From IMG/VR virus record IMGVR_UViG_2529292907_000016: a stretch of DNA of 42,684 bases. One strand, written 5' to 3'. Position 1 is the stretch's first letter; every line of letters begins with the position of its first letter. The notes under the pieces were generated by a model, which saw nothing but the letters and a program-made list of their open reading frames with translations, was not told the DNA's origin and ran no database searches. The stretch comes from a virus (lineage: Duplodnaviria > Heunggongvirae > Uroviricota > Caudoviricetes). The position numbers were made by a program, and so were the translations under genes. Below, one piece after another: positions 5,983 to 36,968 of this stretch.

Positions 5983-6864
5983 TTATATACTTGCAGCCGT
6001 CACCCATGCTCCATTTAACAGATACTGCAACGGCCGGTAATACACGCCGCCGACGTTATCTGCCGTATTCTTACCGACATCCTGTACTTTAATTCCGGTA
6101 AGAACATTGCCGCCCCCCAGATTCAGATCCCAGCTTTCCCATGTTCCGGGCATATGTGCGGTCACCGACCCCAGTCTTATGGCGGTTACTGTTCCTGATG
6201 AGATAGTGATATCCTGCGTCCCGTCAAAGGGAACACCATTAATTGTGTGGGCATTTGCCAGCCTGTTCGCGGCAACGGCGGTGCCGTCCGATGGCAGGGC
6301 ATTCGCCGCCCTGTTTACCGTTTCCCGTAAACCGACGTTATCGATAAAAGCCCCTTTATCCGGAATGTCTGCGCCGTTCTGCTCCCTGCGCAGGTAACGG
6401 TTATCACCTTCGCTTTTGCTGTAAACATCCAGATTATTACGGGCGGTTCCCTTATTCTCCAGGTCGGCGAGATTCTGATCCTTCGCCAGGGCATTAACGT
6501 CAGCGGGACCAAGACTGTTTTTTGTGGCAAGCGTCCCCAGACCAAGATAACCACGGGCCAGACGCTGGGCCTCCGCACCGGCATCAGCAATTTCTTTCAG
6601 GTTATTTTTCCGGGAAAAGGCATTCGCAGCGATAATGGCTTTAATGGACAGCGTAAGCTGGTTTAACTGCGCCTTATCCGGCTGAATACTGGCTTCAGCC
6701 AGAATATTCAGCAGTTCGGCCTGGAGAATATTCAGCCAGTCCTGACCAATCCAGCTGATACCTTTTTGTCCGTCACCTTCGGTAAACCAGGTGGTGGTAT
6801 TACTCTGCGCCGGTGCCAGCGCAGGCATATTCGCCACGCCGGAATTATTATCAACATGAAACAT
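5983..6864 (-). CDS. Tail fibre protein (S-like; constant part 6864..6336 joined to variable part 6335..5983 in this orientation)
   Basis: ORF spans recombination site B; follows the baseplate genes. Confidence 0.75.
6213..6333. repeat. Inverted repeat arm matching 5019..5140
   Basis: Reverse complement aligns with 5019..5140 (one mismatch in the first 62 bp). Confidence 0.7.
6322..6347. other. gix-like recombination site B (core GA), inside the tail fibre gene
   Basis: TTCCCGTAAACC GA CGTTATCGATAA; inner half-site is the exact reverse complement of the inner half of site A. Confidence 0.55.
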
Positions 6865-31280: not shown

Positions 31281-31703
31281 TCAGAAAAGCCGGGGCTGCG
31301 TGCGCTCCTGATGCAGGCGACGCTGGTTGCGGATAACGGAGTAAATCTGCGTCTCTGACATCTGGTAGTGGCGGCGCAGGGTTTCAATTTTTTCGCCCTG
31401 GCTCCAGCGGGAAAAAATTTCATTATTGCGCAGTTCGGTGAAAAGGGATTCACCGACCGGGAGATAATAACCACGCCCGCCCATGTACCCGGCCTGTGCG
31501 GCTGCAACCTTACGGGCAAGCATTCCCGCCTGAGCAGGTTCAATCCCCTGACGGTGCAGTTCAGCACTGATCACATCAACCAGGTCCCGCAGCGTGCCGG
31601 GCCAGTTCTTTTTCAGCTCATCATCAGGAATATCATCCAGACGGTCAATCAGCGCGTGCAGCTGTTCGCTGTCACCAAACATGCTCATCTGTGTTTCAGC
31701 CAT
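31281..31703 (-). CDS. Mor/C-family transcription activator (only one copy present)
   Basis: 140 aa with GGRGYYLPVG motif and C-terminal HTH; lies between gemA and lys. Confidence 0.7.
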   Translation of the reverse strand: MAETQMSMFGDSEQLHALIDRLDDIPDDELKKNWPGTLRDLVDVISAELHRQGIEPAQAGMLARKVAAAQAGYMGGRGYYLPVGESLFTELRNNEIFSRWSQGEKIETLRRHYQMSETQIYSVIRNQRRLHQERTQPRLF

Positions 31704-31773
31704 ACCCGCCTCCGGTCATCATTACACAGGGCAAGTTTAAAATAAAAATCCCGCGCTGTGGCGGGATTTGGGG

Positions 31774-32286
31774 TTAACGGGGGAATGATTTTTCATACAG
31801 CCTGCAAACACGCTCATAACTCATCACTGCACGTTCCGACATATCCAGGGCTGCCAGCATTTTGCGGCGGTGCCAGCGTTTGAGACGCTCCAGCACATCA
31901 GAGGCCAGCGCGGGTTGTTGCTCCAGCCACTGCCAGTTAGCCACACCTTCGCCGTCGTTCTGCGCGGCCGTCTGCGATTTCACCCAGCGGTTAAGGGCCG
32001 TTTCCCCGCCATCAGAGATAAATCCCTGCCGGTGCATCACTTTCCAGATGGCGCGAATTTTGGCGGTCACCGTACCCGGTTTTAAGGCCCGGTTAACCGG
32101 CTTCTGACGCACTTTAAAACCGCGTTTTTTGAAAACATCCAGCACGCGGGATAACTCACCGGGTGACATATCACGGCAACTGGATTTGCCGGTGGCTGCC
32201 AGCAGCGCGGATGTATAGGTATCATGGTCAAGCTGTAGATCGCGTTTTGCGACATGTATTAAGGTAATCAGGGAAGCGCGATTCAT
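31774..32286 (-). CDS. gemA: GemA-like early regulatory protein
   Basis: 170-aa ORF MNRASLITLIHVAKRDL... upstream of Mor/C gene. Confidence 0.6.
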   Translation of the reverse strand: MNRASLITLIHVAKRDLQLDHDTYTSALLAATGKSSCRDMSPGELSRVLDVFKKRGFKVRQKPVNRALKPGTVTAKIRAIWKVMHRQGFISDGGETALNRWVKSQTAAQNDGEGVANWQWLEQQPALASDVLERLKRWHRRKMLAALDMSERAVMSYERVCRLYEKSFPR

Positions 32287-32299
32287 TATCGTGGCTCCA

Positions 32300-32330
32300 T
32301 AAAAAATGGGCGGTGTTACCGCACCGCCAT
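32300..32330 (-). terminator. Intrinsic terminator on - strand just upstream of gemA
   Basis: Minus RNA: stem GGCGGUG/CACCGCC followed by CAUUUUUUAU. Confidence 0.55.
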
Positions 32331-32356: not shown

Positions 32357-32596
32357 ATGTCAGATATAAAAAATGCACTTGATGTTGCCGCATTCACAAT
32401 GGCTGGAAATCTTATGGTAACCCTGTTCGATAAGGGGCTGATTTCCCGTGAGGAGGCAATACATATTATCAATCTCGCTCAAAAAAACTCTACCCCGGAA
32501 AATGCAGAAGATATCCAGGATGGCTCATATATTAATACCGACTGGCATTTCGACAATCTCCGGGCCTGTATGGGGATTACCGCTGAAAAAGATTAA
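32357..32596 (+). CDS. Hypothetical protein (79 aa), antisense to the early operon, in a low-GC island
   Basis: ORF with RBS-like GGAAAAA upstream; converges on and overlaps 32577..32879 by ~20 bp. Confidence 0.4.
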   Translation: MSDIKNALDVAAFTMAGNLMVTLFDKGLISREEAIHIINLAQKNSTPENAEDIQDGSYINTDWHFDNLRACMGITAEKD

Positions 32597-32879
32597 AAAT
32601 TTTTGCATAATGTTCAGATGTAAGAATTGCTGAACCATCAACACCGAGCCTGCGGCGAACGTATTCCTCGCGGGCTATTTTATTATCCAGAGATACAGCA
32701 TCCTTAATCAGGTTAATCTCCCGCTCCATTATCAAAAGGGCTTCTCTGGCTGCAAGATTTTCTTTTATCGCATATTCGATAATGTCCCGCATACGTTCAA
32801 GCATGCCGATTTTAGCCAGTTCTTCGTCGATAGATTTAGGCGCAAATTTGATTTCTTTTTCCATATTATTCATCCTCAC
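32577..32879 (-). CDS. Hypothetical protein (likely start at MEKEIKF, ~32864)
   Basis: ATG immediately after the stop of the upstream small ORF; low-GC. Confidence 0.45.
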   Translation of the reverse strand: MRMNNMEKEIKFAPKSIDEELAKIGMLERMRDIIEYAIKENLAAREALLIMEREINLIKDAVSLDNKIAREEYVRRRLGVDGSAILTSEHYAKIFNLFQR

Positions 32880-33009
32880 AATTTATACATGCAGTGTCGT
32901 CGCCCATATCGCAGTGGTTACATTTTATCTCACCACAATGTGGGCACTCTTTCAGATACTCCGGGTCCTCATTTCCACAGGTGGGACATTCAACAATTTG
33001 CTCATCCAT
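32866..33009 (-). CDS. Cys-rich zinc-ribbon protein (~47 aa), not in ORF track
   Basis: Manual translation MDEQIVECPTCGNEDPEYLKECPHCGEIKCNHCDMGDDTACINCEDE; start overlaps upstream stop (ATGGATGA). Confidence 0.4.
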   Translation of the reverse strand: MDEQIVECPTCGNEDPEYLKECPHCGEIKCNHCDMGDDTACINCEDE

Positions 33010-33334
33010 TATGTATCCCCTGTAATTCCGGCAAGGCCGAAAGATGGCACCAGTGCGTCACCTGTCCGTCCTCATCTTCAAGGCAGGCTCCGGTTTCTTC
33101 ATCAATAAAAAAGCCTTCATACCCCATATGGCCGATGCGCAGTTCCTGTTGGTCACCATACTGAACAATCAGCACGACAGCCTCCATATCAGGCGGAAAT
33201 GCGTCATCCAGTGAATGCCAGGGATAACCGCGCAAATCCCCGAAATAAACGCCGGTCAGCGTTCCGCCACAGAGCGGCATTCCGGCGGCACACACAAGAG
33301 GTTCATCTGATTCAACAAATAAGGTCGTTATCAT
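33002..33334 (-). CDS. Hypothetical protein (110 aa)
   Basis: ORF in early operon, translationally coupled neighbours. Confidence 0.45.
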   Translation of the reverse strand: MITTLFVESDEPLVCAAGMPLCGGTLTGVYFGDLRGYPWHSLDDAFPPDMEAVVLIVQYGDQQELRIGHMGYEGFFIDEETGACLEDEDGQVTHWCHLSALPELQGIHNG

Positions 33335-33882
33335 GGCGTTAACTCCCGTAATACAGCGTCCTCGGCAGTCCGGCGACGGTAATAAACTGCGTGAGCAGAA
33401 TGTTCAGATATTCCAAACTTTTCGCCAATTTCCCGGAATGACAGACGGCGTGGGTAATCGGAATCACGCAGCGCACGTATAAGACGTACATCATCATCAG
33501 ATATGCGCGTGCCGGGGCGTAACTCTCCGCACTTTGTTAATCCAGCACCAATCATTCCTGCCCGACATCTGACAGAATCTTTATTACGTCCGAGATATTC
33601 TCCCATTTGCTGGCAGGTCATTGTTCTGGCATTTTTTCGAATAAACTTATCTTCATCAGGTGTAAATCTTGGGTGTTTATATTTCAGTAACTCCGGGTAT
33701 GAACTGCGCAATACACCAGTCCGGTTATATACAGCCCAGACAGTTCTTTTTATTCTGGCAGCAATATCCTTAACCGGGGTGGATGAATAAAGCGCAATCA
33801 GCAGCGCATCTTCTTCAGGTGTCCACGGACGGACATGAGCGGGGGCGCGACCTTTTAGTCCCATGGGTTGTAATTTCATCAT
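33331..33882 (-). CDS. Hypothetical protein with three HTH/Myb-like repeats (possible DNA-binding)
   Basis: Repeated W/F-TP-E/D-ED...I...motifs (WTPEEDALLIALY, FTPDEDKFIRK). Confidence 0.45.
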   Translation of the reverse strand: MMKLQPMGLKGRAPAHVRPWTPEEDALLIALYSSTPVKDIAARIKRTVWAVYNRTGVLRSSYPELLKYKHPRFTPDEDKFIRKNARTMTCQQMGEYLGRNKDSVRCRAGMIGAGLTKCGELRPGTRISDDDVRLIRALRDSDYPRRLSFREIGEKFGISEHSAHAVYYRRRTAEDAVLRELTP

Positions 33883-33885
33883 GCA

Positions 33886-34401
33886 TCACCCCCTGACTCG
33901 CTTTTCAGCAGCATAAAACTCATCAGACAGTATTTCGGTCATTTTCTGTTTTGCGGGTTTTACGCCGCACTGAAGGTAAATCACATCGTCAACGCAGAAC
34001 CACTTCACAGGGCCAAACAGGATTGCCGAGAAATCAATACCCAGCCAGAACAACAGCGCATCGGTTCTGGCATACGTGACGGGCGAATATTCACGCCACA
34101 GACTGTTCAGTTCATCAGAGGCAACACGCAGGGTTTTAGGGATACGTGATGTGCGCGGTGTGCAGCTCCAGCCATTCGACGCAGTCGGTTTTCGCCATAA
34201 GTCGCGATGAAAAGGATATTTGTCCTCCGTAAAACGCAGTCCCTTAAAGCAAAATCCACTGATACCGGATACAAATACCGACCGGCACGCAACATTCAGC
34301 ACGGCCTCAAGGCGTTTTGCCTCATCCTTAACTTTCTGGCAGTCCTGCTGGTATTTTTGCCACGCAGCCAGCGCGGAAGGGTTTGATGTTTTAAAGAACA
34401 T
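33886..34401 (-). CDS. Hypothetical protein (171 aa)
   Basis: ORF in early operon. Confidence 0.45.
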   Translation of the reverse strand: MFFKTSNPSALAAWQKYQQDCQKVKDEAKRLEAVLNVACRSVFVSGISGFCFKGLRFTEDKYPFHRDLWRKPTASNGWSCTPRTSRIPKTLRVASDELNSLWREYSPVTYARTDALLFWLGIDFSAILFGPVKWFCVDDVIYLQCGVKPAKQKMTEILSDEFYAAEKRVRG

Positions 34402-34934
34402 TACGCCACCTCCGCAGATATCCCTGCCGATGCCGCTGTCCGGTCAATAATCAGGTAACGCAGAACGCGCCCGGTGATGTTCCAGCCGCTTAAGCCGCAG
34501 ATAATGACGCCCAGGCGAATGTCGATATACGCCATCACAAACTGGGGCACGCCTTCTTTCATGGCCTGCTCATCAACTTCAGCCACCACATAAACGGTTT
34601 CGCAGGTCAGTACTCCCTGAGCAAATTCCCACGCCATCGACGGAATATCATGCCCCTCAATCCACGGCAGGGATTTTCTGAAGCTGCACCACTGAACATC
34701 ATCAGCCGCACCTTCCTGGCTGCATTTGCGACGAACCGCCTGCACCGGGCGGGGACGCGGAATATCATAAAAACCGTTACGGTCCGTCAGCACCCCGGCA
34801 TCGACCGCATCACGCAGAAAATAAACCATGGAGGATAGCGGCATATTCATTTTTTCTGCCAGAGAACGACTGGTCAGACGGCCAGAAAAACGCAGCCAGC
34901 TTTTAACCCCTTCAAGCACTTTTGCATCAATCAT
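34401..34934 (-). CDS. Hypothetical protein (177 aa)
   Basis: ORF in early operon. Confidence 0.45.
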   Translation of the reverse strand: MIDAKVLEGVKSWLRFSGRLTSRSLAEKMNMPLSSMVYFLRDAVDAGVLTDRNGFYDIPRPRPVQAVRRKCSQEGAADDVQWCSFRKSLPWIEGHDIPSMAWEFAQGVLTCETVYVVAEVDEQAMKEGVPQFVMAYIDIRLGVIICGLSGWNITGRVLRYLIIDRTAASAGISAEVA

Positions 34935-34937
34935 GAA

Positions 34938-35480
34938 TTATTCCTCCGTCAGCGCCACATATTCAGAATGTTTAATTTCCTGGCATTCTTCAGGAATACC
35001 CCCTTTTATTTCCCTGCCATAAGCGCCTACTTTAAACACCACGCACAGGGCATCACGGGAGAGCGACGGGGTCCACCAGGAGTCCGTGTTAAACATGGAG
35101 GGGATTCTCATTACCCCCAGCTTTTCACAGAGCCAGACAAGGAAATCAGGACGCTTTCTTAACTCACGTTCAGCGGTTTCAATCATTGCGGCAATCGCCG
35201 GACCTTCAGGGCATGACTCATCAGGTCTGGCAATAAAGCACGGTCCGTCCCCGATAAAAGCCACATCATCGCGCTTACGCCAGCCCGCAGGCAGAGAACC
35301 AGAAAAATAAAACTCACTGATTACGTCCATGGCGAACGGCTTTAAGCGCAATCCGGCAGCGCCTGTATTTTTCAGTAATGCCCGAAGAATACTGTTGCGT
35401 AGCGGTAAAACATCCCGCTGATATTCGGTTAAATATTTATTTGTGTACACTATGTCTAATTTGAAATAAAAATATGCCAT
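34938..35480 (-). CDS. Hypothetical protein (180 aa)
   Basis: ORF preceded by ~100-bp AT-rich gap after gam. Confidence 0.45.
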   Translation of the reverse strand: MAYFYFKLDIVYTNKYLTEYQRDVLPLRNSILRALLKNTGAAGLRLKPFAMDVISEFYFSGSLPAGWRKRDDVAFIGDGPCFIARPDESCPEGPAIAAMIETAERELRKRPDFLVWLCEKLGVMRIPSMFNTDSWWTPSLSRDALCVVFKVGAYGREIKGGIPEECQEIKHSEYVALTEE

Positions 35481-35577
35481 ATTTCCTGTTCCTTATTTTC
35501 AGTTTACAGGCGCAGGCAGTCCCCTGACGCGAGCGCCATAATTAACACGATGTGATATTTAAAGATTTAATGCGGTG

Positions 35578-36108
35578 TTATTTATTCAGTCCGGCGTCCT
35601 GTTCAAAAGGCTCGACATAAAAACTTTCAGCGCCTTTATTCACCTTTATACCGGCAATGCCCTTCACCGCATCTGGCTCCGCCAGGACAGCTTGCTTATT
35701 CACTTCCTCTTTCGTGCGGATGAAGCGCTCAAGGCCCATACGGCGCAGCATTTCAATCACGCCTTCCACATCACGGCTGACGCTGCATGATGGCGTTCCC
35801 AGCCGCCATGACACCGTTCCGGTGGTCAGATTGGCTGTTTTGGTTTCGCCGCCGTTCGTCAGCTCATTGCGGTTGGTTTTACACCAGTCATGAATCCCCT
35901 TAAAAAGCACTTTGATTTCTTTTTTAAGGTTTTCAATCTGCGGCGTATAACGGGCGGTGATTTCTGCCACTTCGTCATTCATCGCCGTTTCCAGGCGTAG
36001 TGCCTCACGCTGCATATCCCCAAAGCGTCGGATATCGCGGCTGACCTCTTCACGGGTCTGCGGTGCTGCCTCGGCTGCGGCCTTTAATTTTGTAACGCGT
36101 TTAGCCAT
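35578..36108 (-). CDS. gam: Gam-like host-nuclease inhibitor (DNA end-binding)
   Basis: 176 aa; strong resemblance to Mu Gam (…DIRRFGDMQREALRLETAMNDEVAEI…NGGETKTANLTTGTVSWR…). Confidence 0.8.
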   Translation of the reverse strand: MAKRVTKLKAAAEAAPQTREEVSRDIRRFGDMQREALRLETAMNDEVAEITARYTPQIENLKKEIKVLFKGIHDWCKTNRNELTNGGETKTANLTTGTVSWRLGTPSCSVSRDVEGVIEMLRRMGLERFIRTKEEVNKQAVLAEPDAVKGIAGIKVNKGAESFYVEPFEQDAGLNK

Positions 36109-36440: not shown

Positions 36441-36690
36441 TACCGTTAATAACCCCGGAAGCCATGCCCCTGTCTTTCATGAATGCACTGGCTTTCATTG
36501 CCACAAGCTCTGCGAAGTTTCTGCTTTCTGCCAGCATAACCACCCCAAAAATCATGGCGGGGCTATCATTTTTCTGCTTTATTCCGGTTGAACGTATATC
36601 CAGACTTACCCCCATGTGCACTGTTCCATCAGCGTTTTTACGGATAACGTCCTCCTTGTATTCGAAAATAATGCGCACGACTTTACTCAT
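36418..36690 (-). CDS. Hypothetical protein, tandem paralogue
   Basis: MSKVVRIIFEYKED... Confidence 0.45.
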   Translation of the reverse strand: MSKVVRIIFEYKEDVIRKNADGTVHMGVSLDIRSTGIKQKNDSPAMIFGVVMLAESRNFAELVAMKASAFMKDRGMASGVINGNEFNQQG

Positions 36691-36968
36691 CCTCTGGCCC
36701 TCGTTCTGTTTGGATAACTGACCCGGCGTCTGACCTCACGGCAGAACTGAACCATGGCATTAAAGGCTTCTTCTTCCGTCACCGCTTCCGGTATTCCAGG
36801 AACCAGTAGCTGTTCCTGTTCATCGCGTCCATGACGCGCCACAACATCAATCACATGCCGTACCGTGGCGGGCTTTCCGGCAACTATCGGCAATGCACCT
36901 TCCGGCAGGACGTAACCAAACTCAATAAGACCACTCGACCACGCCCATGCAATGAGATTTTTTTTCAC
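36687..36968 (-). CDS. Hypothetical early protein (93 aa)
   Basis: ORF in early operon. Confidence 0.4.
   Translation of the reverse strand: MKKNLIAWAWSSGLIEFGYVLPEGALPIVAGKPATVRHVIDVVARHGRDEQEQLLVPGIPEAVTEEEAFNAMVQFCREVRRRVSYPNRTRARG

Follow-up and report, generated by a model that had tools for sequence, protein, structure and literature searches.

A mosaic block of five small early genes downstream of gam in a Mu-like prophage of Escherichia coli

The semi-essential early genes of bacteriophage Mu are largely uncharacterised, and where functions in this region are known, they relate to replication, immunity, regulation and host killing (PMC3820752; PMC4553209). In the Mu genome (AF083977) the genes gp11 and gp12 are located after gam and before gp13, gp14 and gemA, and both are annotated as hypothetical proteins. 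Here we analyze the corresponding region of the IMG/VR virus record IMGVR_UViG_2529292907_000016 (Caudoviricetes), a stretch of 42,684 nucleotides (nt) that we refer to as the window. The minus strand of the window carries a Mu-like prophage of the Escherichia coli Sp18/O157 type. An initial annotation had described five consecutive open reading frames (ORFs) of 110–183 amino acids (aa) following gam, here called A180, B177, C171, D183 and E110. Their exact coordinates and sizes were confirmed (Table 1), and their placement in a Mu-type semi-essential early region was borne out as well.

B177 and C171 are located at the same place as gp11 and gp12 in Mu. The intervals between gam and gp11 and between gp12 and gp13 hold nothing in Mu, whereas in the window the first contains A180 and the second D183 and E110. 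By BLASTP we found no counterpart of D183 or E110 at these positions in Mu or SfMu, and none of A180 in Mu. The layout of the block is mosaic: a near-invariable gp11 orthologue stands between A180 and C171, followed by D183 and E110. In the initial annotation none of the five proteins could be assigned. With respect to function this still holds; two of them, however, are gp11 and gp12 orthologues and all five belong to PHROG families. The HMM and structure-based searches proposed there returned family names without function and no informative fold match, and the five could not all be assigned with confidence to housekeeping phage functions. With a probability of roughly 0.5 we consider the block to be the distal half of the semi-essential early operon of a Sp18-type Mu-like prophage, encoding dispensable, non-catalytic early modulators.

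We take the five ORFs to be genes and not chance reading frames, since the start of each is preceded by a Shine-Dalgarno motif of the GGAG/AAGGA type, the successive spacers from A180 to E110 are only +3, −1, +3 and −4 nt, RefSeq annotates the same five coding sequences in a 96%-identical E. coli prophage, and the ratio of non-synonymous to synonymous substitution rates (dN/dS) lies between 0.13 and 0.53 across the five genes (Nei-Gojobori, pairwise against two related prophages). All five evolve under purifying selection. The constraint is most relaxed in A180 (dN/dS 0.53), and positive selection was found in none of the five genes, dN/dS being below 1 in each. For D183 a high divergence between alleles is accompanied by a high dS (0.61), which indicates old alleles rather than fast evolution. 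The PHROG profiles 2260, 1949, 2314, 323 and 6925 (in the order A180 to E110) are matched end to end. On the coding strand, the terminator scan reported no terminator-like site between gam and the hairpin upstream of gemA, and there is no promoter-like site within or beside the block. The operon runs on into the gene of the gp13 homologue F47, which overlaps with E110 by 8 nt.

To describe the distribution of the block we used 38 viral contigs with an A180-family gene, and 33 complete loci carrying such a gene served for presence counts. Among these 33 loci gp11 is present in 32, gp12 in 24, D183 in 19 and E110 in 12. Every gene of the block except gp11 is facultative among relatives. Wherever gam was detected on the 38 contigs the A180-family gene follows it after about 100 nt, and in all Mu-like loci examined it ends 6–12 nt ahead of the gp11 homologue. 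The 3.9 kb around the block match 232 of 5,426 complete E. coli genomes (megablast; best full-length match 96.4% identity) as well as the “inserted Mu-like phage” regions in two Stx phage records. At a query cover of at least 80%, A180 was found in 214 E. coli genomes, gp11–gp12 in 232 and D183–E110 in 144. In one IMG/VR contig (L008) the proteins from B177 through the gp14 homologue are 100% identical to those of the window. Public collections already contain the gene families, the prophage type and the exact sequence.

Alleles in the slot separating gam from gp11 are 24–41% identical, while the neighboring genes are 90–97% identical. One locus (L037) carries a tandem pair of A180-type genes. 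An A180-type gene is present in L033, L035 and L036, three loci in which Gam is 100% identical to that of Mu; more broadly, prophages with a Gam 99–100% identical to Mu’s (the same three and L044) carry a phrog_2260 gene. The reference Mu and E. coli HH35 are without it. In HH35 a gap of 145 bp holds a 14-codon ORF (MKYVYIVINNVVGK), the start of which resembles the MKYxYFK of the family, and this short ORF is a possible deletion remnant of an A180-type gene.

A180 matches phrog_2260 with an E-value of 4e-72, its residues 1–180 aligning with positions 3–192 of the 192 profile positions. Proteins annotated as DUF5420 in SfMu and SCU-106 match the same PHROG. Against DUF5420 itself (PF17457, cut-off 26 bits) A180 gave no match at E ≤ 0.1 and its relatives P0014 and P0005 reached just 15–15.6 bits. 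Since the gathering cut-off is not reached we call A180 DUF5420-like and not a member; judged by its sequence, it is a separate and very divergent branch relative to DUF5420. The family is small: a collection of 5.8 billion sequences yielded 14 matches, and in a set of 1.84 billion proteins it has 26 representatives at E ≤ 1e-3. It is restricted to phages and lacks a catalytic signature. Full-length members are single-domain proteins of 181–210 aa, and the family alignment shows the motifs YFK (N-terminus), P.FS.W and EIKxSEFxALTEE (C-terminus). A single residue is invariant (Gly) and three others are nearly invariant (Tyr, Phe, Ile), which fits a structural role of A180 better than catalysis. 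A PD-(D/E)xK-like reading of the family’s “PDxRxKEGK” was considered and rejected, as the residues are too close to each other and the corresponding stretch of A180 (PDESCPEGP) has no lysines. The AlphaFold2 model of A180 is confident, with a predicted local distance difference test score (pLDDT) of 93.9 and a predicted template modelling score of 0.85. Its elements follow the order beta, two alpha, four beta, two alpha, three beta, alpha. The model gave no match to a solved structure and no meaningful functional match in PDB or BFVD; in the Foldseek search against the viral models of BFVD, only uncharacterised phage proteins of 174–268 aa were recovered at E ≤ 1e-3. Outside Mu-like phages, a distant phrog_2260 member sits among small genes beside the primase of another phage (L045).

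C171 is 54% identical to Mu gp12 over 169 aa (BLASTP, E = 1e-67) and belongs to phrog_2314 (E = 1e-84). A precomputed match to PF26885 exists for all 46 C171 homologues; C171 itself gave no match in the Pfam copy that we scanned. A180 and C171/gp12 are probably distant paralogues, as far as models and profiles can indicate. The model of C171/gp12 shows the same order of secondary structure elements as that of A180. Aligning the two families with hhalign gave an end-to-end match (probability 9.8%, E = 0.003) which pairs YFK with FFK and EIKxSEF with EILSDEF, and in Foldseek searches of BFVD seven of gp12’s top eight matches are also among A180’s top 13. BLASTP detects no similarity between A180 and gp12, so that the two are connected by profile and fold evidence alone.

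Over its entire 177 aa B177 shares 63% identity with Mu gp11 (BLASTP, E = 7e-73), and it is the only protein of the block with a Pfam domain above threshold: Gp11_C (PF25754) is matched with 133.8 bits (cut-off 27), residues 90–167 covering all 78 positions of the profile. In the window its gene lies ahead of that for the gp12 homologue, and in the related loci examined it comes immediately after the phrog_2260 gene. In residues 18–52 we observed weak, mutually consistent matches to HTH_10, HTH_24 and HTH_CodY (E 0.05–0.1), and an N-terminal winged-helix domain in B177/gp11 is possible on these grounds.

D183 is a basic protein with an isoelectric point (pI) of 10.0. For this 183-aa protein three Myb-like helix-turn-helix (HTH) repeats had been described, and this description is supported by sub-threshold Pfam matches in separate repeats, by the match to phrog_323 (“transcriptional regulator, D5-like”, E = 2e-52) and by self-alignment. 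The three Myb/SANT-like units of about 50 aa align with each other and follow the pattern R-x-[WFI]-[ST]-x-x-[ED]-D, then a helix-turn-helix. With 20.7 versus 24.4 bits and 17.3 versus 22.9 bits, the Pfam Myb/SANT models PF00249 and PF13921 stay below their cut-offs on D183; at the level of the repeats we nevertheless regard the predicted resemblance as real. RefSeq labels homologues of D183 as SANT/Myb-like, AsnC family or DNA-binding protein, and in mycobacteriophages the D183-type module overlaps with genes annotated as HNH endonucleases and DNA methylases. A generic DNA-binding module would fit this pattern.

E110 is a small acidic protein (12 kDa, pI 4.1) that matches phrog_6925 with an E-value of 2e-51. 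Homologues with a named source come from E. coli or Salmonella without exception. DUF551 (PF04448) was tried as a candidate family and discarded: it reached 14.6 bits against a cut-off of 22 (E = 0.06), and 0 of 13 other family members match it. The gene is the first of a cassette upstream of gemA that relatives exchange wholesale; in one locus (L014), four unrelated genes take the place of E110 in the stretch from D183 to gemA. None of ten alternative cassette proteins that we scanned from relatives has a known function. The first ~35 residues of E110 (33230–33334, minus strand), MITTLFVESEEPL(I/V)CAAGMPVCGG, precede unrelated C-terminal parts in the proteins P0075 and P0076, which suggests that the variable cassette begins with a recombination joint or with an N-terminal module common to these proteins.

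The block is separated from gam by a gap that had been characterized as AT-rich and about 100 bp long. Its length of 97 bp agrees with this, but AT-richness applies to the first ~40 nt only (about 28% GC by manual count), which are followed by a GC-rich hairpin; the gap as a whole has 43% GC. The hairpin element, TTTTAATTAT-GGCGC-N-GCGTCAGGGGAC-N-GCGCC-TGAA, is retained downstream of gam in Mu, SfMu, Sp18-like prophages and a more distant locus (L038), although the flanking proteins are just 55–63% identical. Folding of 18 distinct versions with RNAfold gave −15 to −21 kcal/mol. Compensatory covariation was not observed in these versions, the eight consensus pairs being either invariant or altered on one side, and Rfam contains no match for the hairpin. 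We rejected a role as terminator because a T-run is absent and the terminator/promoter scan does not report the element. It could be an element of RNA processing, stability or attenuation, or a binding site on DNA or for a protein.

If the block encodes non-catalytic early modulators, its products would be made from the moment of induction or infection, and they would condition transactions of phage and host DNA in the manner of an “arm”- or gem-type helper or neutralise host proteins. They would be dispensable, and it is unlikely that replication or morphogenesis depends on them. A180 and C171 would represent a single, phage-only alpha/beta fold in two highly diverged copies. Instead of being enzymes, A180 and gp12 probably act by stoichiometric binding, and E110 may be a similar binding protein, while gp11 and D183 are putative DNA binders. 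A number of points weigh against this picture. The DNA-binding call for gp11 relies on matches below threshold (E 0.05–0.1). The model of gp12 is poor (pLDDT 64.8) and the hhalign probability is just 9.8%, so that the paralogy of A180 and gp12 is suggestive and not proven. Calling A180 and gp12 non-enzymatic is an argument from absence, and we infer co-transcription from the early promoter from the gene order and the lack of terminators. The “arm” helper phenotype goes back to old Mu genetics and could not be tied to these ORFs.

The Mu semi-essential region has been pointed to as a place for counter-defence genes, and a more specific role can be considered in which one or more of A180, gp12 and E110 would block an anti-phage system of the host by binding to it, for instance to a restriction enzyme, a different nuclease or a sensor of abortive infection, thereby extending the job of Gam against RecBCD. 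We regard both this role and the extension of Gam’s job as doubtful. The genes are early and lie directly downstream of gam, with a gene of phrog_1518 (“host nuclease inhibitor”) just upstream of gam. Four of the five are facultative, the A180 slot combines strongly diverged alleles with highly similar neighbors and is duplicated in tandem in one locus, and A180 shows the most relaxed dN/dS of the block. The small size and low pI of E110 and the small, phage-restricted A180 family without a catalytic signature would also suit inhibitors. However, none of the five proteins matches a PHROG of the category “moron, auxiliary metabolic gene and host takeover”, and PADLOC returned no family at E ≤ 0.1 among seven proteins scanned, including the five. 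No homology to characterised anti-defence inhibitors was found in the PHROG and PDB sequence scans, a dedicated anti-defence library not being among the collections searched. NCBIfam gave nothing for the five proteins, and PDB searched by sequence with single proteins and with the gp11 and A180 family profiles gave nothing below E 0.08, the few weak matches being unrelated. The A180 model has no informative structural match, and dN/dS stays below 1 in every gene. With 214 E. coli genomes compared to 232 for gp11–gp12, A180 is present in most prophages of the lineage, so that it is no rare addition. Among the five proteins, two or three resemble DNA-binding proteins and not inhibitors. Because the genes that replace each other in the cassette are all of unknown function, the location does not support counter-defence either. 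Literature searches gave no support for the idea: we found nothing specific on DUF5420, on Mu gp11/gp12 or on anti-defence in Muvirus. What speaks for a counter-defence role is circumstantial and does not demonstrate it here.

Alternatively, the block could consist of pure regulators: gp11 and D183 would time middle or late phage expression or reprogramme host genes, with A180, gp12 and E110 as co-factors. GemA, with which this reading draws a comparison, has been reported to reprogramme host genes. The HTH content of gp11 and D183, the PHROG label of the latter, the vicinity of gemA and a mor-type gene and the near-universal presence of gp11 in related loci agree with such a role. In contrast, D183 is absent from 14 of the 33 related loci and, at this position, from Mu and SfMu, and is therefore not a core timing factor there. 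A Mu-type cascade is already explained by activators of the Mor/C type, one of which is present in the window, and the PHROG label is a family name only. Overall we think it unlikely that the block is purely regulatory.

A bolder proposal combines several of these elements. A180 and gp12 would be two branches of an unrecognised phage-only alpha/beta fold and, together with E110, would inhibit defence or repair proteins of the host in a stoichiometric manner; the slot after gam would be a counter-defence hotspot lost by laboratory Mu, and the hairpin would set the share of early transcripts that reaches the genes. We put this forward as speculation and consider it improbable as a whole.

It is very unlikely that the block represents lysogen-benefit genes (morons), expressed from the prophage and giving the host a protection such as superinfection exclusion or defence. 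Low-level transcription from the early promoter in Mu lysogens has been proposed as a host benefit (PMC3820752), but the genes sit inside the repressor-controlled early operon and on its strand, the coding strand in and beside the block is free of promoter-like sites, and PADLOC matched none of them to a defence model. The sole reverse-oriented, moron-like gene nearby is a 79-aa ORF (32357–32596) outside the block. A reading of some ORFs as chance frames or as remnants of decay is effectively refuted: a premature stop in the transposase gene indicates that decay is under way in this prophage, but all five are intact and full-length compared to their homologues, tightly packed, equipped with Shine-Dalgarno motifs, matched end to end by PHROG profiles and constrained (dN/dS 0.13–0.53).

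Table 1. Positions of the block genes, the gam–A180 gap and other prophage features in the window.
Feature	Position	Strand	Description
A180, 180 aa	34938–35480	−	Slot between gam and the gp11 gene
B177, 177 aa	34401–34934	−	Mu gp11 orthologue (formerly E10–E12)
C171, 171 aa	33886–34401	−	Mu gp12 orthologue (formerly E13)
D183, 183 aa	33331–33882	−	Basic protein with three HTH units
E110, 110 aa	33002–33334	−	Small acidic protein
Intercistronic gap, 97 bp	35481–35577	−	AT-rich leader, conserved GC hairpin, Shine-Dalgarno motif of A180
Conserved GC-rich hairpin/inverted repeat	35509–35537	−	No T-run after it; unique match in the window
gam	35578–36108	−	Anchor gene upstream of the block; Pfam Phage_Mu_Gam, E = 7e-40; phrog_491; 55% identity to Mu Gam
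F47	32866–33009	−	Mu gp13 homologue, zinc ribbon with 8 Cys; phrog_5584
G100	32577–32879	−	Mu gp14 homologue; 49% identity, E = 3e-29; phrog_6075
gemA	31774–32286	−	Downstream of the block and two further small ORFs
Mor/C-type activator	31281–31703	−	Lysozyme gene directly next
B	37461–38393	−	Followed by five small ORFs, then gam
Transposase A gene	38468–40576	−	After ner
Repressor	40995–41513	+	Ahead of ner and transposase A in the prophage gene order

The genes on both sides of the block are listed in Table 1. F47 shares 88% identity with Mu gp13 across the last 41 residues of the latter (BLASTP), and G100 is the last forward gene ahead of the terminator-like hairpin upstream of gemA. The 79-aa ORF, on the opposite (plus) strand, separates the gp14 homologue from gemA. 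It is the only gene of moron-like layout near the block, belongs to phrog_32893 (unknown function), has no Pfam match and carries the annotation WP_001280088.1 in RefSeq relatives. Upstream of gam we noticed an ORF of 93 aa (36687–36968, minus strand) that matches phrog_1518, “host nuclease inhibitor”, of the moron/host takeover category, and an ORF of 88 aa (36970–37236, minus strand) that matches the Kil PHROG phrog_2679; Pfam gave no match for either. An in-frame stop at 39131–39133 (minus strand) divides the transposase gene of the MuA type into two ORFs, one of 481 and one of 197 aa. At this place the window has RDLPS*SELID and the intact homologue from E. coli DETEC-S792 (696 aa) has RDLPSWAELID; the remainder aligns without gaps at 96.5% identity. 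Judging from this lesion, the prophage copy in the window can probably not transpose.

On the strand of the early operon (minus) two canonical terminator-like hairpins with T-runs were found, one just upstream of gemA (32309–32328) and the other between gemA and the gene of the Mor/C-type activator (31746–31769). Their presence suggests that gemA and the activator gene are read by read-through or from promoters of their own. The activator is the sole member of the Mor/C family in the prophage and is 40% identical to Mu C as compared to 28% to Mu Mor. As the single activator is closer to C and is immediately followed by the lysozyme gene, this prophage may lack the middle-gene stage of Mu. A missing middle-gene stage has been reported for Mannheimia and SuMu phages (PMC4553209).

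By and large the block holds routine “hypothetical” early genes of a prophage type that is common in E. coli, and our analysis makes modest additions: a link between the folds of A180 and gp12, a confident A180 model of a fold without a solved relative, and the pattern of presence and absence of the genes among relatives. Further additions are the conserved hairpin and the finding that an A180-type gene absent from laboratory Mu is present in its nearest relatives. For experimental work the comparison provides a map in which two genes are the gp11/gp12 pair of Mu and three are add-ons, all but gp11 being dispensable in nature. If it were true that one of the products inhibits a defence system, this would provide a function for the semi-essential region of Mu as well as a new inhibitor family.

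Compared with Mu, a gap of ~98 bp (6326–6423) also follows gam there and contains the same hairpin, directly before gp11. Mu E8 (gp9) belongs to the same PHROG as D183 (phrog_323, E = 1e-28), but it has two repeats and is located upstream of gam, whereas D183 has three and is located downstream of the gp12 gene; despite the common PHROG BLASTP detects no pairwise similarity between the two. While gemA and mor overlap in Mu, a terminator-like hairpin separates gemA from the activator gene in the window. In SfMu the slot after gam is occupied as in the window: its gp11 (ORF11) lies between gam and the homologue of Mu gp11, belongs to the same PHROG as A180 and is 41% identical to it. ORF11 has been listed as lacking a homologue in Mu or D108 (PMC4406740). 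SfMu likewise has a reverse-oriented gene where the window has the 79-aa ORF. Among related E. coli strains, SCU-106 carries an A180 allele of 24% identity, and among D183 alleles the difference is about 29%. The window combines, as a recombinant, segments that occur separately in such strains, for example HH35 and SCU-106.

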